Of a stretch of 64,000 nt of DNA, positions 4,918 through 56,348 are shown one piece after another; the first letter of the stretch is position 1, and the number at the start of each line of letters is the position of its first letter. A program made the translations under genes and the position numbers. The stretch comes from an uncultured Fibrobacterota bacterium (lineage in GTDB: Bacteria > Fibrobacterota > Chitinivibrionia > Chitinivibrionales > FEN-1185): the NCBI GenBank assembly GCA_963753345.1, contig CAVWBU010000032.1:64001-128000 (forward strand), written 5' to 3'. The notes under the pieces were generated by a model. That model ran no database searches. It saw only the letters and a program-made list of their open reading frames with translations, and was not told the origin of the DNA.

Positions 4918-4964
4918 TGACCGATGCGAAAGCAGTAGATAAAATTGGGCGATGCGGAATTCTC

Positions 4965-5000
4965 GGGAGATTGCTTCGTCGAAGATTCCTCGCAATGACA
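4965..5000 (+). repeat. REP-like element GAGATTGCTTCG..CTCGCAATGAC
   Basis: second copy in inverted orientation at 56090-56120. Confidence 0.7.
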
Positions 5001-5070
5001 CTTATTTTTCTTTGTCCAGTTTTCGGGTATTGGCTTTTCAACTATTCAATGCTTCAACATTTCAACTGTT

Positions 5071-5222
5071 CTCCGTGGGTGCCGCCACAACGATGCACGG
5101 CCTTGCAGCTGTTTTGTCAAGGCGGCTACCCAGGAGGGGGTAGCGGAGGACCGGTCGCGTTTCTCGATTGGTGGATTGTCAAGTAACGCGACCGGGCCGG
5201 AGCGAGGGGGAGCCCTCCCCCC
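5071..5222 (+). repeat. structured repeat module B (locus 1)
   Basis: GGGTGCCGCC..GGCGGCTACCCAGGAGGGGGTAGCGGAGGAC-hairpin-GCGAGGGGGA..TCCCCC, shared with 14743, 53242 and 55876. Confidence 0.85.
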
Positions 5223-5247
5223 TTAAATAAGTCTCTACTATTTGTAA

Positions 5248-7461
5248 TTAGAATCTTACGCTTATCCCGAATATCGGCGTTATCCCAAACGGCGTCACCT
5301 CCTGGAACCCGGTCCCGTTGAACTTGTATTCGAGCACCGGCTTGTAGTTGAAGAGGTTGATGATCTCGATAAAGAGCTCCGCTTCGGCGCCGAATATCCT
5401 TTTTGTAAACCCGTACCTGAAATTGGTGGTGAGCAGCCTGTCAAGGCGCCTGGAATAATATCCCGCCGAGGTGTCGATCGACGCGGACCTGCGGCCCACG
5501 CAATCCACCCGCACCAGCTCCGGACAGTACGGCCTTCCGCCCGAGCCCGACACCGACAGCGAAACCGTGTGGTTGCGCAGTATGGACGCGGTCGCGGCGG
5601 CCGAAAACGTGTAGCCCACGTCGGTCCAGTCGTCGTACCAGGCTGCATCGTCGAACTGGTTCTTCACGTCGAACAGGGACGCACCGAGGGAACAGGAAAG
5701 CCAGCCGCGCACGGCATTGACAAGAGAGACTTCGGCGCCGTACACCCTCCGGTGGCCGTCCTGGGGCCGCATGGCGGGCACGCCGGCGGCCGTTGTGTAC
5801 ACCACGTCCTGCACGTCGGGCGAGAGAAAGCGGTATTCCTGGTCGTACCACTTGTAATAGACCTCCACGTTTGACGTAACAAGGCCCCACGGCGTGAGGC
5901 GGTAGCCGAGCGTTCCCTGCCAGCACCTGAGGGGCTTTGCCTGTGCAAGGAGCGAGAGCTCGGAGGTGCGCAGGGAATCGTCCGGAAGGTTCGCGTTAGC
6001 CGAAAGCGCGTCGAAAAGGATGGTGGGAAGGTCGGTGGGAAACTGGTGATACAGTCCCAGCCCGGCGGCAAGGCTGCCAGCGCGGCCCAGTGAGACCATG
6101 CCCGCCACACGCGGCGAAACCGCGACATCGTCAAGCAGCCTGAAATAATCCGCGCGCATGCCGGCGGATGCCGAAAACGGTCCTGCCCGGAGCTCGTAAC
6201 CGGCGAACGCTCCCAGCTCCGGTCCTTCTATGGCAATTGCCTTTTCAACCGGTTTCTCGGCCCAGGCAACGGTGACCGGGGAATCGTTCTGGCAAATGAC
6301 GCAGGTGCCGCTGTTCATCGATTCGTCGGAAACCGAGAAAGAATACTTTGTATCGTAGGCACGGATTCCGGCGGTGATGGACTGGTTTTCGCCGGCTGCG
6401 AATTGCGAGCTGGTATTGAGCGAGGCATGCATGCGGTTGTCCGCATTGCTGCTCACCGGGTTTTTTGCATAGTGCTGTGCGAAGAACGCGTCCGAAAACG
6501 ATTCGAGGCTGTCGTACGATCGCCCGTCGCGCTGTGAATAGCTCACCTGGAACCGGTGCTCCTGAAACTCGTCCTTGTAGTGAAAGAGCAGGCCCGCGCC
6601 GCCCTGGAGGATCCGTTCTATTTCGTCAATGCCGCTATTGTGGGCGGCGCCGTCGTCGCCCTGCTGCACAATGGGGTAGCCGTAATTGTACGTGTTGTAC
6701 GAAAAAAGCCCGGTCGCCGAGATGACCAGGTTCGCGGACGGCAGATACAGAAGCTTGCCGTACAAATCGCCGAGTTTGGGGATGCCTTCGTCGCCGATGA
6801 TCGAGCGGAGCGCGGAAAAGTCCACGTATCGTCCGGCAAGCGCGAACGAGCCCTCTTTGCCGAACGCCGGCCCCTCGACCGAGGCGAGGCCGCCGGTCAG
6901 CTTGATGCCCGCGCTGCCATTTACAGAAGAGAACGATCCGCCTTTCATGTCGATGTCCACCACCGACGACATCCGGGGAGGATACGAGACCGGCATGTCG
7001 CCGGCAAAGAACCGCACCGAACGGATGAAATCGGCATTGATGAAGCCGATGGGGCCGCCCGAGCCGTTCGCTTGGGAAAAATGGTTGATGTTTTCCATTT
7101 CTATGCCGTCGACAAAAAAGACAATCTCGCTGGGGCGGCCGCCGCGGACAAACAGGGTGTTGTCGAATTTCGCCCCGAGCGAGGAGACGATTGACGGCAG
7201 GGTGCCCAGATAGCGGCTGATGTCACCGGCGGCGCCGGCCGCGGTCTTTATTTCCTTCGAGGAAAAGACCACGGCGTTACGGCGGTCTATTCCTGAATCA
7301 CGGATTGACGGCGCGGCCCGCACGACCATTCTGTCAACGTGCTCAGCTTCGGGCCGCGGGGCGGCAACGGAATCGCTCTGCGGCACGGCCGCGGTGTCCT
7401 GGCCGGCCCGGGACGGCAGAACAACAATGAACAGCAACAGAAAGCCGATAACGGATTTCAT
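5248..7461 (-). CDS. TonB-dependent outer-membrane receptor
   Basis: signal peptide MKSVIGFLLLF; plug motifs VRGGRPSE..FVDGIE..NINHF and SSVVDI; C-terminal aromatic strand GISVRF. Confidence 0.85.
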   Translation of the reverse strand: MKSVIGFLLLFIVVLPSRAGQDTAAVPQSDSVAAPRPEAEHVDRMVVRAAPSIRDSGIDRRNAVVFSSKEIKTAAGAAGDISRYLGTLPSIVSSLGAKFDNTLFVRGGRPSEIVFFVDGIEMENINHFSQANGSGGPIGFINADFIRSVRFFAGDMPVSYPPRMSSVVDIDMKGGSFSSVNGSAGIKLTGGLASVEGPAFGKEGSFALAGRYVDFSALRSIIGDEGIPKLGDLYGKLLYLPSANLVISATGLFSYNTYNYGYPIVQQGDDGAAHNSGIDEIERILQGGAGLLFHYKDEFQEHRFQVSYSQRDGRSYDSLESFSDAFFAQHYAKNPVSSNADNRMHASLNTSSQFAAGENQSITAGIRAYDTKYSFSVSDESMNSGTCVICQNDSPVTVAWAEKPVEKAIAIEGPELGAFAGYELRAGPFSASAGMRADYFRLLDDVAVSPRVAGMVSLGRAGSLAAGLGLYHQFPTDLPTILFDALSANANLPDDSLRTSELSLLAQAKPLRCWQGTLGYRLTPWGLVTSNVEVYYKWYDQEYRFLSPDVQDVVYTTAAGVPAMRPQDGHRRVYGAEVSLVNAVRGWLSCSLGASLFDVKNQFDDAAWYDDWTDVGYTFSAAATASILRNHTVSLSVSGSGGRPYCPELVRVDCVGRRSASIDTSAGYYSRRLDRLLTTNFRYGFTKRIFGAEAELFIEIINLFNYKPVLEYKFNGTGFQEVTPFGITPIFGISVRF

Positions 7462-7623
7462 GCTGAGCACCTGTCCAGGAAACCGGACTATGGTCAAAGC
7501 AACGGCGAAAGAGCGACAACTAGAAATATAAGAGCAAACGGGGTTTTTGGATCAGCGGTGGCGAAGAAAGTGTTTTCTGCCAGAAACCACTTAATACAAA
7601 TTCAAATACAAATGGAAGATATC

Positions 7624-8051
7624 TTGGAGGGGGAAGTGTCCCCGTGGCCCCAAGCCTCCTCAGCCTACGGCCTGCGGGGTCTTGGAGCACACCCCCTCGT
7701 GGGTAGCCCCCTAGAAAGCTGGTTCGCTGGAAAGAGGCTTCAGCTGCGGGGGCACCGAGAAAAAGAGTTGAAAGTTGACAGTTGGCAGTTGACGGCGGGA
7801 CTTGGGAGAGAGAACCCGCGTTCGTTCCAAGGATTTCAGCTGGCGCAAAGATATACTTGACCGAATAGATTTCTTCTGCCGCGCGCCAGGCAGGACTGGA
7901 AGGTGCGCTGGAGCGCATTGCCGCTTGACCACGGCCCGAAGGGCACTCGTGGCAAGCGGCAACGAGGCCGAAGGCCGAGCCTGGAAGGAGGGCCGCCGCT
8001 GCGAAGCAGCGGGGCGCCCAAATCTTCTCCTATCTATTGGGGAACGCCCAA
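7624..8051. mobile_element. bipartite structured repeat, locus 2: module B' (-, 7624-7760) plus module A (+, 7877-8051)
   Basis: back-to-back modules, same arrangement as loci 3, 6 and 10; A end is duplicated (GGGGCGCCCAA..GGGGAACGCCCAA); mobility is inferred. Confidence 0.6.
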
Positions 8052-8071
8052 CAAATTAATTTATTAATAGA

Positions 8072-8317
8072 TTAGTTCAATCCACCGCAGCACCCAGCAC
8101 CCGCCCCGCAGTCAGAGGCCCCCGGGCACGAAGCTCCGCTCTGGCATGCGGGCCCGCTTGACATCTTGCCCATGGCAATGCCGCCTACGCGCGACATCAG
8201 TTTCCGGGTATCGGTGGACTTGCACTTGGGACAGGGCAGGATTTTGTTAGAGGAGGAAGAGACGATTTCCTCAAACACAATTCCGCACTTGCCGCATTCG
8301 TACTCGTAAATAGGCAT
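8072..8317 (-). CDS. FmdB-family zinc-ribbon regulatory protein
   Basis: MPIYEYECGKCG..FE....CPKCKS...RKLMS; Cys-rich tail. Confidence 0.9.
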   Translation of the reverse strand: MPIYEYECGKCGIVFEEIVSSSSNKILPCPKCKSTDTRKLMSRVGGIAMGKMSSGPACQSGASCPGASDCGAGAGCCGGLN

Positions 8318-8456
8318 GGGATAAAATCCTTTCGTCGATTATTGTGTGCACAAGGGTCAAAAATACATGATAAAATCAATACGAAGAGCCGGGGCCGGAA
8401 ATTTACCGGATTGCGCTTTTGGCCGGCGGACGGCGAAGCACGGCAAGGATTGAGAA

Positions 8457-9551
8457 ATGATACTCGGCGTTGCACGTGAAATTGCGCTCACCTTCATGGA
8501 CATGGCGCCGTACATGCTCCTGGGCCTGACGTTTGCGGGCGTGCTTCACGTCTTTATCCACAGGGACTTTATAGCAAAGCACCTGGGCGGCAGCAACGCG
8601 GCGTCGGTGGTGAAGGCCGCCCTGTTCGGCATACCACTTCCGCTGTGCTCGTGCGGCGTTCTGCCGGTCGCCCTGTCGCTCCGCAAGGGAAAAGCGTCCG
8701 ACGGCGCCACGATTTCCTTTCTTATTTCCACGCCCCAGACCGGCATAGACTCGATTGCGGCGACCTGGGGAATGCTCGGGCCGGTGTACGCGATCTTTCG
8801 GCCGGTTGCCGCGCTTATCATGGGAATCGTGGGCGGGCTGGCCACAATCCCGTTTTCTTCAAAACTCGACCATCCGCTCGCATCGGACAAGCGCTTTTCC
8901 TGCAACCTCTGCTTTGAACCGCGGCCGCATTCGCATTCGCTCCGGTACCGCGCCAAACGCGTATTTGCCTATGCGTTCCGCGATTTTCTGGACGACATCT
9001 CGGTCCAGTTGACAATAGGAATTGTTGCGGCCGGCCTCATTGCGTTTCTTATCCCAGACCATTTCTTCGAGAAATTTGCGAATAGCGAGCTTCTCTCAAT
9101 GCTTCTGATGATCGTGGTGGGCGTGCCCATGTACATCTGTGCCACGGCGTCGATTCCGGTCGCCGTTGCCCTGATGGCAAAGGGTCTGTCGCCCGGCGCG
9201 GCGTTCGTGTTCCTGGCCGTAGGCTCGGCAACCAACATTTCCTTTATCCTCGTGATTGCCGAGGTGATGGGGAAGAAGATCCTTGCCGTGTATCTTGCCG
9301 CGATTACCGTATTGTCGGTGGCAATGGGCTTTGCGCTCGACGGTATATTCTCCCTTGTCGGAACGGAATCGCTGAGGGGAAAACTTGTTCAGGATTTTTC
9401 AGAGAAGCCTTCGCCGTTGATAATGATCCTGTCGGCGGCATTTTTAATTGTGCTTGGGTTATCACTCGCAAGGGTCATCCGCGCAAAGATTTCCGATCGG
9501 CATAGTTGTCATGATGATGGGCGCCATGGTGAGGGATGTTGTAAGAAATAA
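8457..9551 (+). CDS. SO_0444/DUF318-family (ArsP-like) metal permease
   Basis: GIPLPLCSCGVLP, FLISTPQTG, PMYICATASIP; His/Cys-rich linker and tail. Confidence 0.9.
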   Translation: MILGVAREIALTFMDMAPYMLLGLTFAGVLHVFIHRDFIAKHLGGSNAASVVKAALFGIPLPLCSCGVLPVALSLRKGKASDGATISFLISTPQTGIDSIAATWGMLGPVYAIFRPVAALIMGIVGGLATIPFSSKLDHPLASDKRFSCNLCFEPRPHSHSLRYRAKRVFAYAFRDFLDDISVQLTIGIVAAGLIAFLIPDHFFEKFANSELLSMLLMIVVGVPMYICATASIPVAVALMAKGLSPGAAFVFLAVGSATNISFILVIAEVMGKKILAVYLAAITVLSVAMGFALDGIFSLVGTESLRGKLVQDFSEKPSPLIMILSAAFLIVLGLSLARVIRAKISDRHSCHDDGRHGEGCCKK

Positions 9552-9579
9552 TCCAAATGATGAAAAAAGATTAATTCTT

Positions 9580-10018
9580 TTGCTGGGGGCACCGCTACGC
9601 GTTTCCCCCTCGCTGCGGCCTCCTCGGCCTTCGGCCTGCGGTGTCCTCCGCTCCCCCCTCCAGCGAAGAGGCGCGCCTGGGGCGCTCGACCTGCGCTCGC
9701 GCGGCGTCGCCCCTTCGCAACGCAACCACATAGGTATGCCGCTTCGCGGCGATATTGTATTACGGTGCTATCACTTTTGTAACTTTCCGAATCTGATCAT
9801 TACTAGACATTCAATCAAGCGCCTGTCACCTGCGCGTGCGTTAGGCCGGACCGGAGGTCCCGCCATAGCGGGATGCCGCCCGGACCCGCCGCTACTGCGG
9901 CATAGGGCCGAGGCGGCCCGAGGCCGAAGGCCGACGACCCTTGGAAGCACCCGAAGGGGTGGACCGGAGGGAGGGCCGACCTGACCCAGAGCTTGTCGAG
10001 GGGGAGGGAAACGCCCAA
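9580..10018. mobile_element. bipartite structured repeat, locus 3: variant module B (-, 9580-9718) plus module A (+, 9831-10018)
   Basis: reverse strand GGAGGGGGGAGCGGAGGACACCGCAGGCCGAAGGCCGAGGAGGCCGCAGCGAGGGGGA is nearly identical to the 14743 copy; A ends GGGAAACGCCCAA. Confidence 0.6.
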
Positions 10019-10034
10019 CTTATATTAATATCTT

Positions 10035-12737
10035 ATGCCAACAAGATCATCTACTAATCCCGACAAAAAACTGTATCTCATCGACGGCCACGCCATTGCC
10101 TACCGCGCGTACTACGCGCTTATCAAGAACCCATTGACGGATTCAAAAGGCAGGCCCACGGGCGCGGTGTTCGGGTTTGCAAACTACCTGCTCAAGCTGC
10201 TTGCCGAATATTCGTGTCCGTATGTGGCCGTGGTGTTCGACAGCCCGGTGCCCACGTTCCGCCACGAGCTGTTCAAGGAATACAAGGCGAACCGCGAGGA
10301 AATGCCCGCCGACATGCAGTCGCAGATACCGCTCATCCGCAGGCTGGTGGACGTGTTCAATATTCCTGCCCTCATCCAGCCCGGTCTCGAAGCCGACGAC
10401 ATCATCGCGCATGTCACGACGCGCGCTGCAAAGGACGGGTTCGAGGTGTTCCTTGTCACGCGCGACAAGGACCTCATGCAGCTCGTTGGCCCGAAGGTCC
10501 GCATGCTTGCATTCGAATCGAGCGGCGGCATAGAGGATATCGGCCCCGAACAGGTGAAGGAAAAGCTCGGGGTGCCGCCGGAACAGGTGCGCGACCTTCT
10601 TGCGCTCATGGGCGATGCGTCGGACAACATACCGGGCGTGCCTGGCGTGGGGCCCAAGACCGCACAGAAAATCCTTGAAAAGGCGCACACCATAGACGAT
10701 CTGCTTGCCGATCCTTCGTGCATCGAGAACGAAAAGCTCCGGGCAAAGATCGTCGAGAACAAGGAAACGCTCATCCTGTCCCGCAAGCTCGCGACGCTGC
10801 ACACCGACGTCGGATTCGACCTTAGCCTATCGGACCTTGCCGCGCGTCCTGTTAACAAAAGCGAAGCCGCGGCGTTTTTCAAGGAGCTCGAATTCTCGTC
10901 CCTGCTTTCCCATCCGATGTTTGCGGAGCACAGGAAACTCGATTATCGCGTTACCTTCTGTAAAACCATTGGGGAGCTTGAAGGCTTTGTCGAAAGAATC
11001 GAAAAGGCGAAACTCGTTTCGATCGACACCGAAACCACGAGCCTTGTTCCGCGCGAGGCAACGCTCGTGGGTATTTCGCTCGCGGTTGACAAAACAGACG
11101 CCCTGTATGTGCCGGTGGGCCACACCGCGCCGGAGGGAAATCTTCCCCTTGGCAAAGTCCTCGCCGTGCTGAAACCCGTGATCGAATCCGCCGCAATCGT
11201 CAAGATCGGCCAGAACCTCAAGTACGATTATCAGATATTCAGGAACCTCGGGCTCACGATGGCCGGTATCTCATTCGATGCAATGGTCGCCGGGTATGTA
11301 ATCGATCCCGGCAAGCGCAACTACAGCCTCGACGCCATGGCCGCGCAACTGCTCGGCGTTACCCCAATTCCTATCGAATCGCTTATCGGCAAGGGCGCGA
11401 AACAGAAGAATTTTGCCGAAACAGCAATTGCCGACGCCGCGAACTATTCAGGTGAGGATGTGATTCTCCCGCTGTACCTGAAAGAACTGTTTGAACCCAC
11501 GCTTGAGGAACGCAACCTGATAAAGCTTTTCCGCGATATCGAGATGCCGCTCGTGAGCGTGCTTGCCGACATGGAGTGGGAAGGCGTCTGCATCGACGAG
11601 GTTCTGCTGTCCAGGCTTTCAAGCGAGTACACCAAGCGCCTGTCGGCCATTTCGAAGGACATCTACCGGCTTGCCGGAGAGGAATTCAACCTCAATTCTC
11701 CCAAACAGATATCGGTCGTGCTGTTTGAAAACTTAAAACTGCCGAAATCCAAGAAGACCAAGACCGGCCTGTCCACCGACGTCGACGCCCTGGAGAAACT
11801 GCAGGACAGCCATCCGGTGGTGCCCAAGCTGCTCGAATACCGCGAGGTGCAGAAGCTTTTGTCAACCTACATCGACGCGCTGGGACCGCAGGTGCTCGTG
11901 AAGAGCGGCAGGCTCCACACCACGTTCAACCAGACCATTGCCGCGACCGGCAGGCTGTCGAGCACGAACCCCAACCTCCAGAACATCCCGGTGCGCACCG
12001 ACGCGGGCCGCGCCATCCGCGAGGCGTTTATCGCGCCGGCAGGAAAGGCCATCGTCTCGGCCGATTACTCGCAGATAGACCTTCGCATTCTGGCGCATGT
12101 GTCAAAGGACCGGTTTCTTGCCGACTCGTTCCACGAAGACAAGGACATCCACAGCCAGACCGCGGCGGCCATCTACGGTATCATGCCGGAGCTGGTGACG
12201 CCCGAGATGCGGCGCGCCGCAAAGACCATCAACTTCGGCCTCATGTACGGCATGGGGCCCGTCAACCTGTCGCGCCAGCTCGGCATTTCCTTCAGGGAGG
12301 CCCAGGAATTCATCGACAACTATTTCAAGCAGTTCCCTACCGTCAAGTCGTACATGACGAAAAGCATCGAGGCCGCGCGGGAAAAGGGGTTCTCCGAGAC
12401 CCTGCTCGGCAGGAGGCGCTATTTGCCGGAAATCAACGCCGACAACCGCCAGGTGCGCGAGGCGGCCGAGCGCACCGCGATCAACACGCCCATCCAGGGC
12501 ACCGCGGCCGACATCATCAAGATCGCCATGATCCGCATCAGTAACAACCGCGCGTTGGCGCCATGCCCGTTCACCATGCTCCTGCAGGTCCACGACGAAC
12601 TCGTGTTCGAGGTGAAGGAAGCCGACGCAGACGGCTTTGCGAAATGGGTGTGCGCCATGATGAGCGATGCGTACAAGCTCGACGTGCCGCTCAAGGTGGA
12701 GGCGGGGAAGGGAAGGAATTGGAGTGAGGCGCATTAA
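10035..12737 (+). CDS. polA: DNA polymerase I
   Basis: 5' nuclease (LIDG..AYRAY, GDASDNIPGVPGVG), 3'-5' exonuclease (IDTETT), polymerase motifs SADYSQI, AKTINFG, LQVHDEL. Confidence 0.99.
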   Translation: MPTRSSTNPDKKLYLIDGHAIAYRAYYALIKNPLTDSKGRPTGAVFGFANYLLKLLAEYSCPYVAVVFDSPVPTFRHELFKEYKANREEMPADMQSQIPLIRRLVDVFNIPALIQPGLEADDIIAHVTTRAAKDGFEVFLVTRDKDLMQLVGPKVRMLAFESSGGIEDIGPEQVKEKLGVPPEQVRDLLALMGDASDNIPGVPGVGPKTAQKILEKAHTIDDLLADPSCIENEKLRAKIVENKETLILSRKLATLHTDVGFDLSLSDLAARPVNKSEAAAFFKELEFSSLLSHPMFAEHRKLDYRVTFCKTIGELEGFVERIEKAKLVSIDTETTSLVPREATLVGISLAVDKTDALYVPVGHTAPEGNLPLGKVLAVLKPVIESAAIVKIGQNLKYDYQIFRNLGLTMAGISFDAMVAGYVIDPGKRNYSLDAMAAQLLGVTPIPIESLIGKGAKQKNFAETAIADAANYSGEDVILPLYLKELFEPTLEERNLIKLFRDIEMPLVSVLADMEWEGVCIDEVLLSRLSSEYTKRLSAISKDIYRLAGEEFNLNSPKQISVVLFENLKLPKSKKTKTGLSTDVDALEKLQDSHPVVPKLLEYREVQKLLSTYIDALGPQVLVKSGRLHTTFNQTIAATGRLSSTNPNLQNIPVRTDAGRAIREAFIAPAGKAIVSADYSQIDLRILAHVSKDRFLADSFHEDKDIHSQTAAAIYGIMPELVTPEMRRAAKTINFGLMYGMGPVNLSRQLGISFREAQEFIDNYFKQFPTVKSYMTKSIEAAREKGFSETLLGRRRYLPEINADNRQVREAAERTAINTPIQGTAADIIKIAMIRISNNRALAPCPFTMLLQVHDELVFEVKEADADGFAKWVCAMMSDAYKLDVPLKVEAGKGRNWSEAH

Positions 12738-12826
12738 AGAAGTTGAAGGTTGAAAGTTGAAGGTTGAAAGTGAGGGAGCGAAAAAGGAGAGCGTTCATCA
12801 ATAGTACTTGCTCCTGCTGTCAACTG

Positions 12827-13783
12827 TCAACCGTCAACTGTCAACAATACTTTTAATATTCCCCGCTTCTTCGAATACTCAATCGCCTCCAGGCCTTTCT
12901 CAATCGTAAATTCTTTTGAAATCATTGGTGAAAAATCAGGCTTGTAGGTTTCCAGAAAACGAAGCGCTTCGGAAAAACGTCCGCAGCGCGAACCGACAAC
13001 GGTGATTTCATTGACTACAATGGGGGCGGGGTTGAAAGAAAGGTTCCGCGCGTAGGTGCTCTTGAGAACCAGCGTCCCACGCGGCTTGACGCATTCGATT
13101 GCGGTGGAAAACGCGTCCGGGTTTCCGGAGGCTTCAATCACCACATCGAACTGCTCGTGGTTTAAGTCACTTGACAGGACGGCAGAAATGCCGAGCCTTT
13201 CCATCATTTCAAGCTTTTCAACGTGTCTGCCGACAGCCATGGCTTTGCACGAAACCGTCGCGAGCACATGGGCAATGAGCAGCCCGAGCTTTCCGTCGCC
13301 GATGAGCAGCACCTTCTTGTTCTCAAGCACAACTTGTTCTTTGATTTCGAGCGCTGCGGCCAGGGGCTCGATGAAAATTGCGCTTGTGTCCGGGACGCTG
13401 TCTGGAATCATCACGACATTTCTTGACGGGACGCAGATAGATTCGGCGAATGCGCCGTCGCGGCCCCGTATGCCGATAACGGTCCGATTGGGGCAGTGCC
13501 GCTCCATTCCGCTTTGGCAATAACCGCACTCGCCGCAGCCGCAGTTGATTTCAGCGGTTGCGCGTTTGCCGATGAGACTTTTATCATCGGATTCTTCGAC
13601 AACGCCTACAAACTCGTGGCCGAGTATGCCTTTAAAACCCGGCATGTATCCTGCGAGGATTTCGAGGTCGGTGTTGCAGATGCTGGCCCTTGTAACACGC
13701 GGATCAAGACTTCGCCCTTTGTTACGGATGGGAACAGGCACGTCTGCGAGGCGGAGCGTTCCGTCGAAGTAGAGGGATTTCAT
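12827..13783 (-). CDS. zinc-dependent alcohol dehydrogenase family protein
   Basis: ICNTD, GHEFVG, CGECGYC..HC, IGDGKLG; start placed at MKSLYFDG because the upstream ORF extension is repeat module A. Confidence 0.92.
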   Translation of the reverse strand: MKSLYFDGTLRLADVPVPIRNKGRSLDPRVTRASICNTDLEILAGYMPGFKGILGHEFVGVVEESDDKSLIGKRATAEINCGCGECGYCQSGMERHCPNRTVIGIRGRDGAFAESICVPSRNVVMIPDSVPDTSAIFIEPLAAALEIKEQVVLENKKVLLIGDGKLGLLIAHVLATVSCKAMAVGRHVEKLEMMERLGISAVLSSDLNHEQFDVVIEASGNPDAFSTAIECVKPRGTLVLKSTYARNLSFNPAPIVVNEITVVGSRCGRFSEALRFLETYKPDFSPMISKEFTIEKGLEAIEYSKKRGILKVLLTVDG

Positions 13784-13816
13784 AGTATCCTGAGTTTCGC
13801 TCTTATTCAAACGTGC

Positions 13817-13971
13817 TTGGGCGTTCCCCTCCCCCTCGACAAGCTCGGGGTCGGGTCGGTCTCCCTTCGGGCTCGGCCATGCGGCCTCGTTGCCGGCTGC
13901 CCAAGGCCCTGCGGGCCGTGGTCGGCGGCAATGCGCTCTGGCGCACCCTTCGGTCCACCTAACGCGCGGCA
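13817..13971 (-). repeat. structured repeat module A (locus 4, left end)
   Basis: reverse complement TGCCGCGCGTTAGGTGGACCGAAGGGT...GGGGAACGCCCAA. Confidence 0.85.
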
Positions 13972-14042
13972 AGAGAAGTTTCATCAGTCAATATAATTGC
14001 TCCCGCCATCATGAATTGTCAAGGAACAGAACAGGTCTTCTC

Positions 14043-14566
14043 TTAGAGCTTCATTGCTAATTCCATCAACTCTTTTTCCATCTTGAAATATCGCTTCATC
14101 GCCATTTTCACCGATTCGACTTTTTCTTTTTCCATTTTCCTTCGTGCTAATATCTCGCTAAACCGTTCTTCAAGCGTCACCACCCGGTCCTTGACGCGCG
14201 CGTCCGCGTACGCGACGATCTTGTTTTCCAGCGTGCGCGGCAGAAAAGATTCGTTTGGTGATCCACGCAGTACCGAAAGCTCGTACATGCTCCCGTGCAT
14301 CACGATGGCCGCGAGGTCGGAAAGGCCTTCCTTTTTCAATATATTGATGGAATTGATTTCATGATCCCCCTTTCTCCTCTTCCGATATCATGCAGAAGGG
14401 CCGCGATGCGGACCTTTTCGGGGTTTACATCAAGGGATGGACGCAAGTCATGGATCTTTATTGCGAGGTCAAATGCAAAAGCGGAGACTTTCCTTGAATG
14501 CTCGATGCGGGATTTGTCAAGGCCGTATGTTCTAAGAAGAGCGAGTGCTTGACGATAAGTAACCAT
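14043..14566 (-). CDS. HD-domain (HDIG) phosphohydrolase, frameshifted near 14365
   Basis: IEHSRKV..AALLHDIGR in one frame; H..TLENKIVAYADARV in the next; the break is in an A/G homopolymer run. Confidence 0.8.
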
Positions 14567-14742
14567 AAGTATCAAATGAAAAGTGATGCACGGGCTTGGG
14601 TGTTCCAATTCCTAACATTAATCCGGCTCTGCTGGCGATCTCTCGTGGTGCCCCCCCCCGCAGCCGGCGTATCGCTTGCAATGACATATTGACTTGTATT
14701 GATCACGATGTCGGCTTGATTCCCGGGCCCGGCCAGCTATCG

Positions 14743-14874
14743 CTCGTGGGTGCCGCCGCAGCGAAGTATGGTCTTGCAGCTATTTTGTCAAGGCGGCCAC
14801 CCAGGAGGGGGTAGCGGAGGACAGCCGCAGGCCGAAGGCCGAGGAGGCCGTAGCGAGGGGGAGACTTCCCCCAC
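14743..14874 (+). repeat. structured repeat module B (locus 4, right end)
   Basis: full B consensus; a partial extra B 5' end at about 14641-14697. Confidence 0.85.
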
Positions 14875-14882
14875 TTGAAAAT

Positions 14883-16246
14883 CTATTTTTTAAAAAATTC
14901 CTGATACAATGTATTCACCGCCTTCGTCTCATCCGACGCGTCAATGCCGAATATCATGCTTATTTCCGAGCTTCCCTGGTTGCACATTTTGATGTTGACG
15001 CCTGCCTTGGACAGCGCCGCCGCGGCCTGCGCCAGTACGCCGATCTTGTGCAGCAGGCCTTCGCCCACCACGGCCACCAGCGCGATGCCGAACTCCGACT
15101 TGATGTCGTCGGGATGGAGCGTGTCGTCGATCTGGCGGATGATGTTGTTGACGTCCTCGGGCTTGAGCTGGTTCTGGTCGAGGATGATGGAGATGTTGTC
15201 CACGCCCGAAGGGCAGTGCTCGTACGAGAGGTTGAGGTCCTCCAGAATAGAGAGGAGCCGCCGCACGAACCCCTTCTCGCGGTTCATGAGGAATTTCTGC
15301 AATGTAAAGCTGCAGTAGCCGCCGCCGCTGGCGATGCCGGTCACGTCGCGCTGGCTGGGCAGCCGCTCCGATACGATGAGCGTGCCCGGGTTGTCGAGGT
15401 TGAAGGTGTTGCGCAGCCGGATGGGGATCTTTTTCCGCATCACCGGGCGCACGGCCTCCTCGTGCAGCACGTTGAAGCCGATGTAGGAGAGCTCGCGCAT
15501 TTCCTTGTAGGTGAGCGCCGGGATCTGGAGCGGGTTCTCCACGGCGTTGGGGTTGGCCGAGAAGATCCCGTCGACGTCGGTCCAGTTCTCGTATTCCACT
15601 GCGTCAAGGGCCTCGGCCAGGATCGAGCCCGTGAGGTCCGAGCCGCCGCGGGAGAACGTGACCACGTCACCCTCGCGCGTAACGCCGAAGAACCCCGGGA
15701 ACACCACGATATGCTGGGAGCAGATTTTCTTGAGGCCCGCAAGCTTGAGCGAGATTTCGCTCAAGGGCTGAGCGTCGCCGAAACTGGGGGTCACGATCAT
15801 GCCCGCGTCCTTCGGCGAGACGTACAGCGCCTTCCTGCCGATGTGCTTGAGGTATTCGGCGAACAGCCGGGCATTGACGTCTTCCCCTCCCGCAACCACG
15901 AGGTCGCGGAACTTGCCCGGATGCTCCTTGGGCGCGGAGATCCGGGTGTCGAAATCGTCGAGCACCGCCTCGATGATGTCTTTCTTCACGCCGAGCGGTT
16001 CGTAGATGCCGCGGAAGCGGTTCTTGACGTCGCCGATCTCCGGCGAGGCGTCCTTGCCGGAAAGCGCCTTGGCGGTCGCCTTGATGAGAAGATCGGTGAC
16101 CTTGACGGAAACACCTTTTGCCTTTCCCGGCGCCGAGACCACCACGCAGCGCCTGGTGGGTTTGAGCTCGAGGATCTTCGCAATCTGATGCAGGGTCTCT
16201 TGGTCGCAACCGATGTTCCGCCGAACTTGCACACGATGAATTCCAT
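14883..16246 (-). CDS. lysC: aspartate kinase (frameshift near 16200)
   Basis: MEFIVCKFGGTSVA start; VVVSAPGK, FSRGGSDLTG, WTDVDG; ACT domain QGSSEISM. Confidence 0.93.
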
Positions 16247-17607: not shown

Positions 17608-17746
17608 TTGGTGGGGGAGGTATCCCCCTGGCCCCAAGCCTCCTCGTCCAGCGGGACTGCGGGGTCTTGGGGCACACCCCCTCGTGGGTAGCCCCCAAGG
17701 GAGTTGGTTGGCAAGAAAGAAACCTCGCTTGCGGGGGCACCGAGAA
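17608..17746 (-). repeat. structured repeat module B' (locus 5, no A partner seen)
   Basis: TTGGTGGGGGAGGTATCCCCCT..CACACCCCCTCGTGGGTAGCCCCC..GCGGGGGCACCGAGAA, as at 7624 and 30896. Confidence 0.85.
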
Positions 17747-30895: not shown

Positions 30896-31326
30896 TTGGT
30901 GGGGGAAGTTTCCCCCTGGGGTACAACCAACCGGCGAATGGAATATGCAATTTCTATACAGGCCGGTTGTTTGCACCCACACCCCCTCGTGGGTAGCCCC
31001 CAAGTAAGTTGCTTTGCAAGAAAGAAACTTTGGTTGCGGGGGCACCGAGAAAGAGAGTTGGAAAGCTGACGGTTGACAGTTGACAGCAGGACAATGAGAA
31101 GTCCTGACGGATTGTCTAATGATTCCGGCTGGCGCAAGAATATAACTTGACTGAAGAGATTACCGCTGCCGCGCGTTAGGCGCGACTGGAGGTCCCGCCG
31201 AAGCGGGATGCCGCCCGGACCCGGCCCTGTGGGCCATAGGGCCGAGGCGGCCCGGGGCCGAAGGCTGAGACGCGGAAGGAGAGCCGCCCCGCGCCTTTGC
31301 TCACGGAAGGCGCGGGGAACGCCCAA
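30896..31326. mobile_element. bipartite structured repeat, locus 6: B' (-, 30896-31050) plus A (+, 31167-31326)
   Basis: same order, heptamer spacer and TGGCG..TTGAC leader as locus 2. Confidence 0.6.
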
Positions 31327-31405
31327 GACATTGACTGAATTATAGAAGCCCGAGGTGCTTTCCTGAAAAATCATTATATTTAGGACATACCTGCACATAG
31401 GGGGA

Positions 31406-36384: not shown

Positions 36385-36650
36385 TTTGCAAGAAAGAGAC
36401 TTCCGCCGCGGGTATCCAGAAGGTGGTCACCTTTGGAAACTAGTTGGCGCAAAATAGATTGGTTTGCTGATAAGAATTCCGTTGCCGCGCGTTAGGTGGA
36501 CCGAAGGGTGAGCAAGAGCGAATTGCCGGCCGACCCTCCCCGAAGGGGACTACGGGCGGTCCGGCAACGAGGCGGACGGCCGAGCCCGCAGGGAGACCGA
36601 CCCTTGGTTGGGGCGCCTGGTCCTGCGCTCCAACCAAGGGGAACGCCCAA
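36385..36650. mobile_element. bipartite structured repeat, locus 7: degenerate B' remnant (36385-36421) plus A (+, 36483-36650)
   Basis: TTTGCAAGAAAGAGACTT..GCGGG matches the B' interior (cf. 31013-31045); full A module. Confidence 0.55.
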
Positions 36651-36688
36651 TTCTTCCTGCTTTGTCAAAAGAACTCCTAGAGGTACTC

Positions 36689-38572: not shown

Positions 38573-38652
38573 TAGGGCGTTCCCCGCAAGACAAAAGAAG
38601 AGTTGGGCGCCCCGCGGCTTCGCCGCAGCGAGGGGGATACTTCCCCCGCCAA
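38573..38652. mobile_element. minimal form of the bipartite repeat, locus 8: A 3' end (-) fused to B 3' end (+)
   Basis: TAGGGCGTTCCCC..TTGGGCGCCCCGCGGCTTCGCCGC runs directly into AGCGAGGGGGATACTTCCCCCGCCAA. Confidence 0.6.
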
Positions 38653-38662
38653 CAACTTTTTG

Positions 38663-46028: not shown

Positions 46029-46281
46029 TCGGCATCAACTCACTGTCTTTGCGCCTGCGCCGGCCTGGTGCGGAGCATGGAGTGTCTCACGTGCGGCGCC
46101 TTCGGGTGCTCAGGGGAGGGTGATCGGGTACGATTGCACGAAAACGGCGCTTCGATAAGCGCCGCGCTTTGATAATATAGTAGTTGAATGCGAGGCCGTG
46201 CCACGGCAAAAAGGATCGGCAATCAGAAATCGCCTGCACGAGCGTATTCTTCCATATATTTATGGAGCTGTAACATTGGGT

Positions 46282-46311
46282 TTGACATTTTTTTACAGCC
46301 AAACCTATATT
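46282..46311 (+). promoter_or_regulatory. sigma70-like promoter
   Basis: TTGACA-N18-TATATT upstream of the lipoprotein/porin/GH57 run. Confidence 0.5.
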
Positions 46312-46465
46312 ATCACAACTATTTGCAGGGCATTTGGGCGGACGAGCGGGCTTTTCTTCCCTCTCACGACGAAGTGGTTCCGACCAACGCAGACGGCATG
46401 CGGAAAAAATCCTGTTTTCACTCATGCCTCCATCGGTTTTTCATCATGACTCCACGGCAAAGCGA

Positions 46466-48136: not shown

Positions 48137-48145
48137 CGTGATGCA

Positions 48146-49381: not shown

Positions 49382-49407
49382 CGCACCCCTTCGCAAGCGA
49401 GGTGATT

Positions 49408-50241: not shown

Positions 50242-50273
50242 AACGCCCCAGGGCGGCTGCACCGGAGAAGGCG

Positions 50274-51881: not shown

Positions 51882-51936
51882 GAGTGATCGAGGATATTCG
51901 CCACAACAGACTGCGTCTTAACAGAAGGAGAGGACC

Positions 51937-52710: not shown

Positions 52711-52749
52711 ATTCTGTTCATTCAATAAATAATTCTTTACAAAAGATTT

Positions 52750-52788
52750 AGGCGCTCCGACGTTTTCACAGCGGGGCGCTTCTATTTT
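52750..52788 (+). terminator. probable intrinsic terminator
   Basis: AGGCGCTCCG..CGGGGCGCTT stem followed by CTATTTT. Confidence 0.5.
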
Positions 52789-53020
52789 CACCTCGGCCTT
52801 CGCACTTTGGGGGTCGGGAGGTTCTCACTATCGTTTCGCAAGGGTAAGGCAGTGGTGCTTTGCACCATTTATTATGTCACTTGCCCTTTCACTCCCGAGC
52901 CCAGACCCACTTTGTTGTCACTTGCGTTCCCCAGGGCAAGGTAGTTGGTGCTTCGCACCAGATATTATGTCTCTTGCCCTGTCAGCAGCGAAAGAAAGTA
53001 GGCAAAGAACGCCGCGCCTG

Positions 53021-53153
53021 CAGCGCCGCAACAACCCCTCGGCCTCCGGGCCGCTCGTGAACTCACCCGGCAGGACAAGGGCTTTACTTTGCATTAAGAT
53101 GCCGGGCTCGAACAGCACGAGCGGCCAACCCTCCGGCCTCGGGGGCGGCGCTG
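53021..53153 (-). other. long interrupted hairpin of unknown type, back-to-back with module B (locus 9)
   Basis: nested stems CAGCGCCGC/GCGGCGCTG, GGCCGCTCGTG/CACGAGCGGCC, CCCGGCA/TGCCGGG. Confidence 0.55.
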
Positions 53154-53241
53154 ATGGCGGAAGGAAAAGCGGACAAGTCATTCGAATCTTCGCAAGCCGC
53201 TATTGACAATTGCGTAATGTTCCCCTGTTTTTCAACTACCG

Positions 53242-53362
53242 CTCTTGGGTGCCCCCACACAGCACCATGGTTCTGCAACCGCCTCCACTCGGGGTGCACC
53301 CAGGAGGGGGTAGCGGAGGACGCCGAAGGCGGCTGAAGCGAGGGGGAAACTTCCCCCACAAA
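53242..53362 (+). repeat. structured repeat module B (locus 9)
   Basis: GGGTGCCCCC..GGGGTGCACCCAGGAGGGGGTAGCGGAGGACGCCGAAGGCGGCTGAAGCGAGGGGGAAACTTCCCCCAC. Confidence 0.85.
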
Positions 53363-53363
53363 A

Positions 53364-53726
53364 TTATTTCTTTCTTCTCTCACTCATCTCCACTGCCACA
53401 CTCTTCGCATATCGCAGCGCCTGTGGTTTGTCAACCCTCACCGTCGCGCCTGTCACGCGCTGGTCTTCCATCACAATCTCCAGCACTCTTGCGGCAAGTT
53501 TCTCAAGAAGCCGATATCGTGAACCTTCAATCTCTGCCATGATTTTTCTCTTGAGTGCCTTGTAATTTACCGTATCGGAAATCGAATCCGTTTGAGCTGC
53601 CTTGGATGCGTCGAACTCAAACGAGAGGTTGATGATCACATCTTGTTTTACGTCGCGTTCCCATTCGTTGTCGCCGATCACGGTGCGGAGAAGCAGGTCG
53701 ACGATCGACAGCTTTGCAAAAGGCAT
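53364..53726 (-). CDS. folB: dihydroneopterin aldolase/epimerase
   Basis: IG..EWER..KQDV, D.I.DTVNY, LLEKLA, VRVDKP.A. Confidence 0.9.
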   Translation of the reverse strand: MPFAKLSIVDLLLRTVIGDNEWERDVKQDVIINLSFEFDASKAAQTDSISDTVNYKALKRKIMAEIEGSRYRLLEKLAARVLEIVMEDQRVTGATVRVDKPQALRYAKSVAVEMSERRKK

Positions 53727-53824
53727 TGAAATCCTCCCCTGAAAATGACTGCCTCCCGTAAAGTGGACGGGCAGGGAATTATTTTACAGTGGTCAAGGGT
53801 ATCCGAAAAAAAACAGGTTCCATC

Positions 53825-55855
53825 ATGAAAGATACTACAAAGCCGCGTCGGCCGGAACTTCTCGCGCCCGCCGGCACCGTGGAGTGCTTCCGTGCGGCCA
53901 TTGACGCGGGCGCAAACGCCGTGTACCTCGGGCTCACCGATTTCAACGCGCGGCTCCGCGCCCGCAACTTCACCATGAAGACCCTCTCATACGCGGTGCC
54001 GTTCGCGCACGCAAGGGGCGTGCGGGTGTATGTGACATTCAACACGCTTGTCAAGCAGGCGGAGCTCGGGCGCGCCGTTGATTTCCTGTACCAGATCGAG
54101 CAGATCGGCGTGGACGCGGTCATCGTTCAGGACATGGGAATCGCGCGGATTGCGGCCGCGGAGTTTCCGCGCTTGCGCCTGCACGCGAGCACGCAGACGG
54201 CCGTGCACAACAGCGCGGGCGCGGACGCCTGCAGGCGGCTCGGATTCCGTCGCGTGGTGCTTGCGCGCGAGCTCACGCTCGCGGAAATCGGCACAATATG
54301 CGCTGCCTCCAAGATCGAAGTAGAGGTGTTCGTGCACGGCGCACTGTGTTATTCGATTTCGGGCGAGTGCCTTGCGTCAAGTTTTTTCGGCGGATCGAGC
54401 GGCAACCGCGGCAGGTGCACGCAGGTGTGCAGGCGCGCGTTCGACAGGCTGCCGACTGCGAAGGGCGCAGCGCAGGATATTTTTTCTCGCCCAGCGACCT
54501 TTCCGCAGTCGACTCGGCTGCCGCAATTGGCGCGGCAGGCGTGGCGAGCCTCAAGATCGAGGGCCGCATGAAGGCGACCCAGTACGTTCGACGCCGCGAC
54601 AGGCGCTTTCCGGATGGTGCTTGACGATCCGGGAAAAACGGAAGAGGCCAAGCTGCGGCTGTCGCGCGATATGGGGAGAAGGAAAACAAGGCTTTTTCTT
54701 GACGGCATTGTTCATGACGGGATCATCGACCACGTGAACCCGTCGGGCACGGGAATTCCCCTCGGCACGCTTGTTAAAGTTGACGGACGGGAGATCGTCG
54801 TGGCGGCCGCGGAGCGGCCCGGAGCAGGCGATCTGATACGGGTGCACCCGAAGGATGGGACCGAAGGAGTGACGGCGGCCGTGGAGAGCGTTACCGTCAA
54901 AGGAGACGAGGTACACATCATCCTTGATAAAGTCATTGAGTGCGGTCCCGGTGATTCGGCATATCTCGTCGGCTCCGAGAAATCGGCGGGGAAAGGCGAT
55001 ACGAAGTTCGACGTAAAGCCCGCGGGGTTCCGCGAAAACCTCCGGGACAGCTTTGCCATGGCGCGCCGTCACAGCGCGCCGCCTCCGGTCCAGGCAAACC
55101 GCGACCGCCGGCTGTTTGTCAGAATAGACTCGTTTGACTGGCTTCCGCTGCTTGACGCGCCGGACATTGGAGGAGTAATTTGCGCTTTCGACAAAGATGG
55201 CGTGCGGCGTCTGGCGGGTGATGAAGAGGCGAAGAAAAAGCTCGGTCGCGCCGCCTATGTCGAGCCGCCGCCGTTCATAGGGGAAGGTGAGCTTGCGGAA
55301 TGGCGGGGGATTGTGCGCGAGATGTGTGCCGGGGATACATTCGGCCTGATGGCCGCGAACCTGGGGCATGTTCCGCTTGCCGCCGGCATCGTGCGCGTGC
55401 GGGCCGACTTCCAGCTGTGGTGCCTCAACCGGGCGGCGCAGGCCGCGTACCGCGGCCTCGGCATGAAACACTTCACCTATTCCCTCGAAGACGACTCGAT
55501 GAACATCCGCGAATGCGCTTCACAGAACGGAATGATGTATCTGTTTACGCACGTGCCGCTGTTCGTTTCCAGGATAAAGCCGGCGGTCGAGCCGGGTGCG
55601 CGCTTGGTTGACCGGTTGGGGCGAAAGACGTTTGTCGCGGAAAAACATGGGCTGCACTACCTTGTGGCGGAGGAGACGGTGTGCCTTTTTCACAAGCGCC
55701 GAAGGCTTGAGGAACTCGGCATCCTCACGTTCTGCGTTGATCTGAGTTTCATGGAGCCGGACGGGAAGGTTCTGGGTGAGATTCTGGATTGCTATACAAA
55801 CGAGAAGAAGTTTCCGGGGTCGTGCCTTTTTAATTTCAAGGGCGGTCTAAAATAG
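53825..55855 (+). CDS. U32-family protein (RlhA/TrhP-like), two apparent frameshifts near 54450 and 54590
   Basis: PELLAPAG, GANAVYLG, HASTQ, VVLAREL, EVFVHGALC..SGEC, NRGRC.Q.CR; then SPSDL and SLKIEGRMK in another frame. Confidence 0.88.
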
Positions 55856-55875
55856 CTCTTACAGAGATGATACTG

Positions 55876-56348
55876 TTGGTGGGGGAAGTATCCCCCTCGC
55901 TGCGGCCCGGCGCTACCTAACAACTCAACTCTCGTCAATCGCGCCGGTCCTTCGCTACCCCCTCCTGGGTGGCCGCCTTGACAAAGCGGTAGCAAAACCA
56001 TGTATTGCTGTGGCGGCACCCACGGAGAATAGTTGAAACGTTGAATAGTTGAAAAGCCAATACCAGAAAACTGGACAAAGAAAAACAAGTGTCATTGCGA
56101 GCGCAGCGAAGCAATCTCCCAATGATTTTTACCTAAAAGAACCTTGTCTGATTTGCTGCGAATGCCGATTGGCGTGAGAATGTAACTTGACGGAATAGAG
56201 TTCTTCTGCCGCGCGTTAGGTGGACCGGAGGGTGAGCTAGAGCGAATTGCCGGCCGACCCCGGCCGAAGGCCATCGGGGCGGTCCGGCAACGAGGCGAAC
56301 AGCCGAGCCCGCAGGGAGACCGACCCCGCGAAGCGGGGGAACGCCCAA
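55876..56348. mobile_element. bipartite structured repeat, locus 10: B (-, 55876-56027), REP-like element (56090-56120), A (+, 56207-56348)
   Basis: back-to-back modules; 55876-56120 is an inverted homolog of 4965-5222. Confidence 0.6.

Follow-up and report, generated by a model that had tools for sequence, protein, structure and literature searches.

Scattered between the genes of an uncultured Fibrobacterota bacterium of the order Chitinivibrionales are hundreds of copies of two GC-rich modules, here called A and B, that fold elaborately as single strands, obey a strict rule of arrangement, are spread patchily across the order and turn over between sister species. The window in which they were recognised is a stretch of 64,000 nucleotides (C32:64001-128000) from one of the 55 contigs of a 4.52 Mb metagenome-assembled genome (MAG) with 55.9% G+C, referred to below as G000. 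We think the chances about even that the loci represent one ancient and very abundant Chitinivibrionales family of non-autonomous structured half-elements that is mobilised by a factor encoded elsewhere.

Half-elements occur singly or as pairs that meet at their leaders, the pairs being the two-armed form in which both 3′ ends point outward, and they would spread and persist as selfish DNA. A single-stranded fold, either of an outward transcript starting from the leader or of exposed single-stranded DNA (ssDNA), would be recognised by a trans-acting factor, and this factor would belong to none of the Y1/HUH, reverse transcriptase or TnpB families. Flips, arm swaps and remnants that consist of ends alone would arise in addition, through local recombination between copies.

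Abundance and Host Genome

Modules were located with nhmmer hidden Markov models trained on the window copies and, through cmsearch, with two covariance models (R1 for A and R2 for B). Over the whole of G000, nhmmer returned 409 A modules (369 near full length) and 297 B modules (277 near full length), and these counts are lower bounds, since contig ends come within 200 nt of 11 A and 8 B matches. The modules, which sort into types A, A′, B and B′, are GC-rich and 115–190 nt long, with a median (10th–90th percentile) of 151 nt (122–177) for A and 139 nt (114–158) for B. They make up 425 loci covering 123,048 bp, or 2.7% of the genome: 185 A/B, 25 A/A, 1 B/B, 1 with three modules, 127 single A and 86 single B. 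An earlier sequence-only reading of the window had described a dispersed bipartite element; this holds for the two-armed structured loci, 185 of 210 of which carry two unrelated arm types, but about half of all loci in G000 are single-armed, and A/A and rare B/B loci occur as well. All six A and all eight B or B′ positions listed in that reading were recovered with the hidden Markov and covariance models, the copy at 9580 as a 3′ part only.

Since the sequence comes from a metagenome, it is reasonable to ask whether the repeats are an artefact of assembly or binning. G000 has 94% completeness and 4.8% contamination, contigs often break at repeats, and several small contigs (C44/C45/C46, C4/C5/C16, C10/C39/C43 and others) duplicate parts of longer contigs with protein identities of at least 80%, which suggests that the MAG mixes strains; flanks are shared by 59 pairs of repeat loci. 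The window locus is found in public DNA runs from peat, freshwater-sediment and soil metagenomes, with no RNA run listed for window 5000–14999, and the closest related MAGs (Chitinivibrionales/Fibrobacterota) are of fen, bog and sediment origin. In the four runs inspected, contigs break in the repeats and depth there rises 10–40 fold; the joints are indistinguishable from those of other copies and are thus uninformative on inversion or empty alleles. Against an artefact stand the presence of the modules in four further congeners, assembled independently, as well as in other families, the contigs from separate public runs that in the window span the passage from gene through B arm to core, and the compensatory changes by which copies differ from each other, and for practical purposes we regard it as refuted.

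Arrangement, Leaders and Tails

The rule of arrangement is close to absolute. Among neighbouring modules less than 300 nt apart in G000, 112 pairs are B−/A+, 93 A−/B+, 29 A−/A+ and 3 B−/B+, which amounts to 237 divergent pairs against a single convergent one, and the arms are therefore joined 5′ end to 5′ end. The outward-pointing 3′ ends and the linkage of A with B that had been noticed in the window are thereby upheld genome-wide, and the linkage is strong. The core between the model borders of two joined arms has a minimum length of 67 nt, a median of 127 nt and a 95th percentile of 283 nt.

Each side of the core has its own character. A is preceded by a conserved leader (..TTGGCGCgAGAAgAA..aTTGACnGAAtAGAtTTC.. 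in a logo of 339 copies), and B by TCAAC units in a short tandem array and then by CTCTTCG. Arrays of at least three TCAAC units number 176 in G000; 163 are intergenic, and 119 have a module within 150 nt. Where two A modules are paired, one arm is usually of a third type, which by eye starts with TGCCAAGCGCCAGG and again has its own leader. It follows that the unit is a half-element consisting of a leader of about 50–60 nt, a fold and a T-rich tail, each fold type having a leader of its own, and that in a two-armed locus two such units meet at their leaders. No consistent sigma-70 promoter is found in the leader, with one match upstream of the A module at 13972, and the motif TAGATTTC has what we take to be a partial likeness to the Bacteroidetes −7 motif.

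The tails end in ...GGGGAACGCCCAA for A and ...TCCCCCACCAA for B, as seen in logos, each followed by a T-rich flank but by no canonical terminator. By eye, TTGG and a displaced TCCCCCTCG are all that the two tails have in common; the earlier reading had given the outer ends mostly as TTGG...CCAA, abutting AT-rich flanks. The absence of a clear target-site duplication is confirmed: in 161 two-armed copies no excess over shuffled pairs was found for k = 2–8, apart from 33 versus 17 at k = 2.

Tails also occur on their own. In the 90 nt beyond each of 297 intact A tails, another A-tail motif was found 16 times in the same orientation and never in the reverse (2 versus 7 at 1299 controls), and a B-tail motif 28 times in the same and 13 times in the reverse orientation (26 and 32 in controls). 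Such solo tails might reflect nested insertion beside an older end, replacement that does not reach the end, or a target with a likeness to the tail. Among B matches, 22 retain only the 3′ part and 11 only the 5′ part (6 of those 11 being tail variants), and A matches have no clear 5′ or 3′ truncation bias once split hits and tail variants are removed.

This layout of leader, RNA-like structured module and T-rich tail invites comparison with a SINE-like retroelement, the outward transcripts of which would be reverse-transcribed in trans; the solo 3′ tails and the excess of 3′-keeping B copies fit as well. We nevertheless consider such an origin very unlikely, given that the conserved leader would need to be inside the transcript, that there is no target-site duplication, that A is without a clear 5′-truncation bias, and that among the carriers of the modules only two congeners (G002 and G004) have a reverse transcriptase gene of family RVT_1, which is lacking in G000, G001 and G005.

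Folding of the Modules

Both modules are true single-stranded folds, of RNA or ssDNA, with covariation support. When 104 A copies were placed on R1, 91.3% of cells were paired versus 80.4% in column shuffles, none of 500 of which reached the observed value; both sides changed in 18 of 27 pairs, the covariation score was 0.293 versus 0.111, and pairing fell to 38–54% when partners were slid by 1–3 columns. These statistics carry the caveats that the R1 alignment is fitted to the model and that the A copies are related. In alignment A1, which holds 63 A copies, helix P1 changes from GCGUU/AACGC to GCGCC/GGCGC in 9–11 copies and is broken in none, and a long-range pair (24/202) is C-G in 34 copies, U-A in 27, U-G in 2 and never broken. 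Helices P2, P3, P4 and P6 each exist in several compensated versions, and P6 ranges from an 11-nt hairpin to perfect palindromes of up to 40 nt. In B, the G-C pairs of helix P1 are swapped to C-G (17 versus 42), helix P2 reads GC-G.A-N-A.G-GG in all 41 B-type rows and is replaced in the B′ subtypes (the 19 other rows, as read from those listed) by different helices made entirely of Watson–Crick pairs, and the closing hairpin GGGGGA/UCCCCC is invariant. Single copies have folding energies of −47 to −115 kcal/mol, and G-N-A loops with a closing C-G pair are frequent. The check that had been proposed for both modules, covariance modelling, thus yields covarying pairs beyond what composition explains, and both fold.

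Which of the two strands folds is a separate matter. Tandem sheared G.A pairs stabilise a single strand, and their C.U complement does not. G.A or A.G oppositions beside helices in A are present in 60–63 of 63 copies (21.205, 22.204, 25.201, 151.166 and 152.165), and because these motifs are invariant and the complementary C.U would not pair, the outward-reading strand is assigned as the folding strand. The assignment relies on the G.A motifs because the two other tests are weak: minimum free energy favours the sense strand in 181 of the 277 A copies and 111 of the 176 B copies, a difference that is significant but averages only about 2 kcal/mol, and the counts of G.U versus A.C in modelled pairs come largely from one position.

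A mini-palindrome of 28–30 nt, GTAGAG..CTCTAC, occurs 27 times in the genome; in 26 cases it forms the tip of P6 or P3 within an A module, and some of its copies are perfect and loopless. It is seen in loci L125, L129 and L133, and in no A copy of the window.

Placement Relative to Genes

Gene positions were obtained by crude calling of open reading frames (ORFs) after repeat masking. On this basis, A faces a gene start in 185 cases and a gene end in 175, and B a start in 103 and an end in 167, which agrees with the earlier observation that loci occur in both orientations and next to both starts and ends of genes. Of the loci, 215 are in tandem gaps, 108 in convergent and 85 in divergent ones, as compared with 1003, 352 and 413 for all gaps of at least 100 nt, and where an arm faces the end of a gene its tail is a median of 26–28 nt from the stop codon. 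Orientation is weakly associated with local GC skew (Fisher p = 0.02 for A and 0.002 for B; A+ 111:36 for positive versus negative skew, A− 82:50) and correlates, again weakly, with the prevailing direction of genes. Overall, the modules are without a fixed relation to genes.

These figures bear directly on the alternative that the modules serve the host as RNA, being small transcription units or untranslated-region modules kept at each locus as a 3′-end stabiliser, terminator, insulator or protein-binding small RNA. Selection at each locus has been proposed for REP and BIME sequences. We judge this possible, though clearly short of an even chance. In its favour are the enrichment in convergent gaps (108/352 versus 85/413 for divergent), the short distance from stop codon to tail, the conserved leader before A, the weak agreement of orientation with GC skew and local gene direction, the conservation of unpaired positions and G.A motifs on one strand, the conservation of the module cores across the order, and folds that are intact even though the copies are old. 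Set against these are the lack of a fixed orientation to neighbouring genes, of a canonical terminator after the folds and of a clear sigma-70 promoter in the leader, together with the differences between genomes described in the next two sections.

Turnover between Sister Species

The closest genome, G001 (PolA 93% identical; 73% complete), allows individual sites to be compared, and 32 of its loci were examined over about 113 kb. Nine of the 32 could not be mapped, 5 with flanks that were too short and 4 without a colinear match. At the 23 mapped sites, the element is the same in 9 cases, inverted as a whole between colinear flanks in 3, of different arm make-up in 7 (B versus A-type, or one arm missing), absent from G000 in 3 and ambiguous in 1. 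The gap upstream of polA provides a case in point, since it holds B−/A+ in G000 and G005, A−/B+ in G001, and no element in G002, G003 and G004. Differences at the same site in orientation, arm type and presence weigh against a module kept at each locus for the benefit of the host.

An observation on the same gap concerns the ArsP-type permease gene upstream of polA. In G002–G005 this gene extends into what by eye is a CxxC metal-binding-like segment (window 9400–9551), and in G000 and G001 the repeat element stands in place of the extension.

The earlier suggestion that empty alleles be sought at orthologous sites meets with a divided result: sites do differ between sister species, and the polA site is empty in three of five congeners, but none of the three element-free G000 sites is a clean empty allele. 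One of these has two inverted TCAAC arrays, one is rearranged, and one retains a 45-nt end-only remnant.

Spread among Relatives

In other genomes, presence was scored on a capped number of candidates per genome, and the figures that follow are of genomes matched rather than of copies. Both A and B are found in four of five congeners by BLAST and both models. The fifth, G003, belongs to the same genus and is 99% complete, and none of its 36 scored A candidates or 38 scored B candidates matches. Across the order, A is present in 19 and B in 30 of 81 genomes, in a patchy pattern, and a phylum sample of 151 genomes has A in 16, just one of them in the large family f10, which contributes 55 genomes to the sample. 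The absence of matches from G003 and from most genera of the order is a further point against modules that serve the host.

The distant matches are full length and extend to other families, where A keeps the unpaired core (GCGUUAG.., GGAC.GGAGG, CCGAGGCGAAnAGCCGAGCCCGGA and GGGGAACGCCC) while its helices shrink or change, and B keeps GAGGGGGUAGCG..GAC and GGAGCGAGGGGGAnACUUCCCCC. Since diverged matches are found order-wide, the folds are old. High copy number characterises this genus. In one distant genome two A modules stand back to back with about 38 nt between the arms, a spacing that also argues against the host RNA reading. Searches of viral contigs gave 44 and 2 seed matches, none of which was confirmed by the models, and they are put down to chance.

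A stretch from a distant genus (L156 in G025, positions 1380–1700) has a B-like module amid small G/C hairpins and repeated TTGAC words (GTTGACTTTAATATTGAC). Intergenic short repeats of the TTGAC type therefore extend beyond this genus.

The Search for a Mobilising Gene

The sequence-only reading had likened the unit to REPINs and to palindrome-associated transposable elements (PATEs). If the loci were REPIN/RAYT-like or derived from IS200/IS605, they would be moved as ssDNA by a Y1/HUH transposase, possibly with a scaffold for a TnpB guide RNA. The structured ends, the lack of target-site duplication and the strand-specific fold would all suit this, as would the mini-palindrome inside 26 A copies, given that it begins with GTAG, as REP sequences also do.

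The enzymes themselves are a different matter. With control genomes positive in each enzyme-family search, Y1_Tnp (PF01797) gave no match in G000 (94% complete), G001 (73% complete) or G003; it is present in G002 (8 matches, 6 of them identical), G004 and G005 (weak), which is to say in three carriers and not in the A/B-negative G003. TnpB (PF07282) has no match in G000 and among the five congeners is found in G001 only, and RVT_1 (PF00078) is absent from G000, G001, G003 and G005 and present in G002 and G004. Seven stretches of 4–6.5 kb around Y1 and TnpB genes of the congeners contain no flanking A or B; one A lies about 2.2 kb from the G004 gene, and a G002 stretch yielded a B-like match that is partial and weak (25.8 bits). 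The likeness to REPINs and PATEs is thus not sustained, G000 having no Y1/HUH, TnpB or reverse transcriptase gene, and copies that would bracket a Y1/TnpA or reverse transcriptase gene, which the earlier reading had recommended looking for, were not found, no copy bracketing a candidate mobilising gene. In addition, the two arms fold on opposite strands, in contrast to the left and right ends of IS200/IS605 elements. On balance, descent from either group seems improbable to us, although somewhat less so than a retroelement origin.

G002 harbours a 549-bp IS200-like element that encodes a 144-aa Y1 transposase in six identical gene copies (contigs C5, C15, C31, C40 and C22 among them), and two copies compared are 100% identical over the 549 bp. 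With nhmmer at E up to 10, the ends of this element match neither A nor B, another count against a REPIN or PATE origin.

Several other candidates were considered. One gene of the IS110 DEDD family (PF01548) lies in G000 at the end of contig C16; a bridge-RNA link was rejected, since R1 with filters off found nothing above 5 bits at this gene, the upstream side of which is cut by the contig end. The 8 genes inside long-spacer divergent pairs are ordinary and unrelated and were rejected as signs of autonomous copies. G000 has no high-copy protein family.

Databases and literature were no more informative. Rfam has no match at the gathering score over the whole window, and in 55800–56400 there is just one 7-bit chance match at E up to 10. 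The motif strings gave chance matches only in full-text literature, and among the papers listed that name Chitinivibrionales taxa none has anything on repeats in its title or abstract opening. That the earlier reading did not recognise a described family agrees with both the Rfam result and the literature searched.

Age of the Copies

How well does a mobile family account for what is seen? The median identity of a locus to its nearest other locus in G000 is 82%, which excludes a recent burst, and only 26 of 402 loci have a neighbour at 95% identity or more. This is one of several points that weigh against mobility. No mobilising gene was found in the families searched (Y1/HUH, TnpB, reverse transcriptase and IS110) and no pair of copies brackets a shared gene, there is no target-site duplication and by eye only TTGG is common to both ends, and the three element-free G000 sites include no clean empty allele. 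In 10 orthologous pairs, substitutions amount to 13.5% at paired positions, 20.9% at unpaired positions and 12.2% in flanks, so that the modules change as fast as their flanks or faster, and of the changed pairs 56 are broken versus 37 kept (14 of these by changes on both sides), as counted relative to the minimum-free-energy fold of one copy. Finally, intact folds in old copies argue for selection on each copy, which would also suit a host function. The selfish and the host-serving readings can both be partly true, by analogy with the debate over REP sequences.

The Loci of the Window

The window illustrates most of the forms described above. It begins with a single B on the plus strand at 5076..5226 (nhmmer 87.5 bits, model positions 2–132), preceded at about 5036–5070 by a short tandem array of the TCAAC type that is evident in the sequence. 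A TonB-receptor-like gene with a Pfam Plug domain (5248–7497, minus strand) follows, and its start faces the 3′ end of the B′ arm of a two-armed locus (7624..7758, minus; nhmmer 83.7 bits, alignment A2). The core of this locus (7759..7875) consists of a GTTGA(nn) array beside B and then the A leader, TGGCGC..TTGAC.GAATAGATTTC, and its A arm (7876..8023, plus; cmsearch 143.9 bits) has the covarying P1 variant GCGCC/GGCGC. Read from the sequence, a solo A 3′ tail (GGGGAACGCCCAA) lies at 8039..8051 on the plus strand, 17 nt beyond the intact A and in the same orientation. Upstream of polA, a degenerate B′ arm with only its 3′ part (9580..9672, minus; nhmmer 47.2 bits, model positions 48–132) is accompanied by an A arm with an extra inserted hairpin (9831..10020, plus; cmsearch 98.6 bits) that stops 15 nt before the polA start at 10035.

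At 12740..12847, repeat family D12 and pairwise alignment reveal two inverted short arrays, GTTGAnn x4 and nnTCAAC x4, without A or B, where G001 has a full A−/B+ locus. Next comes an A arm (13815..13972, minus; cmsearch 134.7 bits) that ends about 20 nt before the start of an alcohol-dehydrogenase-like gene (12827–13795, minus; Pfam), and 774 nt from it is a B arm (14746..14877, plus; nhmmer 104.7 bits). Spacers had been described as running from zero to about 770 bp, and the upper figure holds, but the lower does not, as with the module borders used here the minimum core is 67 nt. Between these two arms lies an HD-domain gene (14043–14608, minus; Pfam) that is split into two ORFs, a likely frameshift.

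The other single modules of this kind are a B′ at 17608..17744 (minus; nhmmer 82.8 bits) and a B with a short P2a hairpin at 53245..53362 (plus; nhmmer 78.1 bits), so that the window has single B modules at 5076, 17608 and 53245. A two-armed locus is made up of a B′ arm with the P2 variant GGGTGCAA/TTGTACCC (30896..31049, minus; nhmmer 86.5 bits), a core with a GTTGAC array and then the A leader, as read from the sequence (31050..31165), and an A arm (31166..31328, plus; cmsearch 116.7 bits). The A module at 36482..36652 (plus; cmsearch 132.4 bits), which has a long variable P6 hairpin, has behind it a remnant of the 5′ part of a B′ arm (36385..36412, minus; repeat family D15, 82% identical to 31013–31040 inside the B′ arm just described). 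Every A in the window had been said to be backed by a B, a B′ or a remnant; five of the six A modules do have a B on the opposite strand, and the sixth, at 36482, has only this B′ 5′ fragment. A mini-element at 38575..38655, recognised from repeat families I8 and I11 and from the sequence, joins a reverse-complement A 3′ tail (38575–38630) to a B 3′ tail (38621–38654), and a second such A-tail/B-tail mini-element is found on contig C37. The last two-armed locus has a B arm (55876..56023, minus; nhmmer 98.7 bits, also cmsearch R2), a core whose sequence shows a GTTGA array, another palindromic repeat at about 56085–56115 and then the A leader (56024..56205), and an A arm (56206..56350, plus; cmsearch 133.7 bits).

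That other short palindromic repeat, CATTGCGAG..AAGCAATC, is found in the window at about 4950–5000 and 56085–56115 and has 15 copies in the genome; it is the sole source of BLAST matches in several other families of the order (e.g., G016 and G027). At one end of the window, a near-pure run of A of about 150 nt with few short words (3142–3294; repeat family D3) lies just upstream of the ORF at 3305–4858. Such a run is odd for a bacterial genome, and it may either be a genuine homopolymer tract or stem from the assembly. Positions 3296–4459 hold 7–10 tandem copies of a 144-bp unit within the same ORF, which has beta-propeller matches (PQQ_2, DUF5122).

Comparison with Known Systems

REPINs, which are REP doublets mobilised by RAYTs (PMC3337134; PMC3116915; bioRxiv 10.1101/2022.05.22.493013), are one of the closest parallels. 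They too have hundreds of intergenic copies, consist of two inverted structured parts round a spacer, are non-autonomous and long-lived in a lineage, and occur as singlets beside doublets. A REP arm, however, is a single short hairpin of one kind, whereas here the arms are multi-helix folds of 115–190 nt that come in two or more unrelated kinds with separate leaders; moreover, G000 has no RAYT (Y1_Tnp), and in the congeners none is flanked by A or B. Enterobacterial BIMEs (named in PMC3184786 and PMC2229807) share the mosaic of opposed structured units and short conserved motifs, the intergenic position, often just after genes, and the variable combinations. The present elements are larger, with more complex folds, have TCAAC tandem arrays and long leaders in the core, and belong to another phylum.

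The BOX elements of pneumococci, the Correia elements of Neisseria and MITEs are likewise modular, high-copy, non-autonomous intergenic repeats (PMC3049150; PMC10969869). Such repeats can carry promoters and fold in RNA, and MITEs have terminal inverted repeats and target-site duplications that result from a DDE transposase; here, by contrast with MITEs, there is no duplication in 161 copies, and by eye only TTGG is common to both ends. IS200/IS605 PATEs and the guide-RNA scaffolds of TnpB and IscB resemble the half-elements in their structured asymmetric ends, in the lack of target-site duplication and in an RNA scaffold that at its 3′ end would continue into the flanking DNA. They differ in that G000 has neither TnpA nor TnpB and that the two folds here are on opposite strands. 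Rfam includes the HEARO/IscB family, with which there is no match. In form only, Streptomyces telomeres and parvovirus hairpins are reminiscent of these loci, having a complex fold at the 3′-ward end of each strand and G-N-A loops; unlike the ends of linear replicons, the elements here are integrated and chromosome-internal, with no linked gene for a terminal protein, Rep or nickase.

Taken together, membership in the REPINs or the PATEs is not supported. In kind, the family belongs with the interspersed repeats of the REP/BIME/REPIN, BOX and Correia types, and it differs from those families in the size and complexity of its folds, its several unrelated fold types with leaders of their own, the strict leader-to-leader joining and the lack of defining enzymes.

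Significance

To our knowledge, repeats rarely persist in bacterial genomes, and the few families that do are linked to a known enzyme, REPINs being an example. In the present case, elaborately folded repeats take up nearly 3% of a genome; their folds are found order-wide and their sites turn over, and the usual mobilising enzymes (Y1/HUH, TnpB and reverse transcriptase) were not found. In practical terms, the repeats break short-read assemblies of abundant carbon-cycling bacteria of peat and sediment, and the two covariance models can mark them.

A more speculative version of mobility, which from the sequences we would rate as rather doubtful, is that the half-elements are small-RNA genes that move: from each leader an outward transcript of about 150 nt would be made, a protein would bind its conserved fold, and the RNA and protein together would copy or relocate the element without reverse transcriptase, HUH enzyme or TnpB. 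If this were true, mobile elements centred on RNA would have a new class, present in some 700 gene copies per genome. If the modules are instead host RNAs, they would be among the largest families of structured-RNA loci of any bacterium, and if the half-elements are mobile in whatever manner, a mechanism of mobilisation that recognises a complex single-stranded fold awaits discovery.

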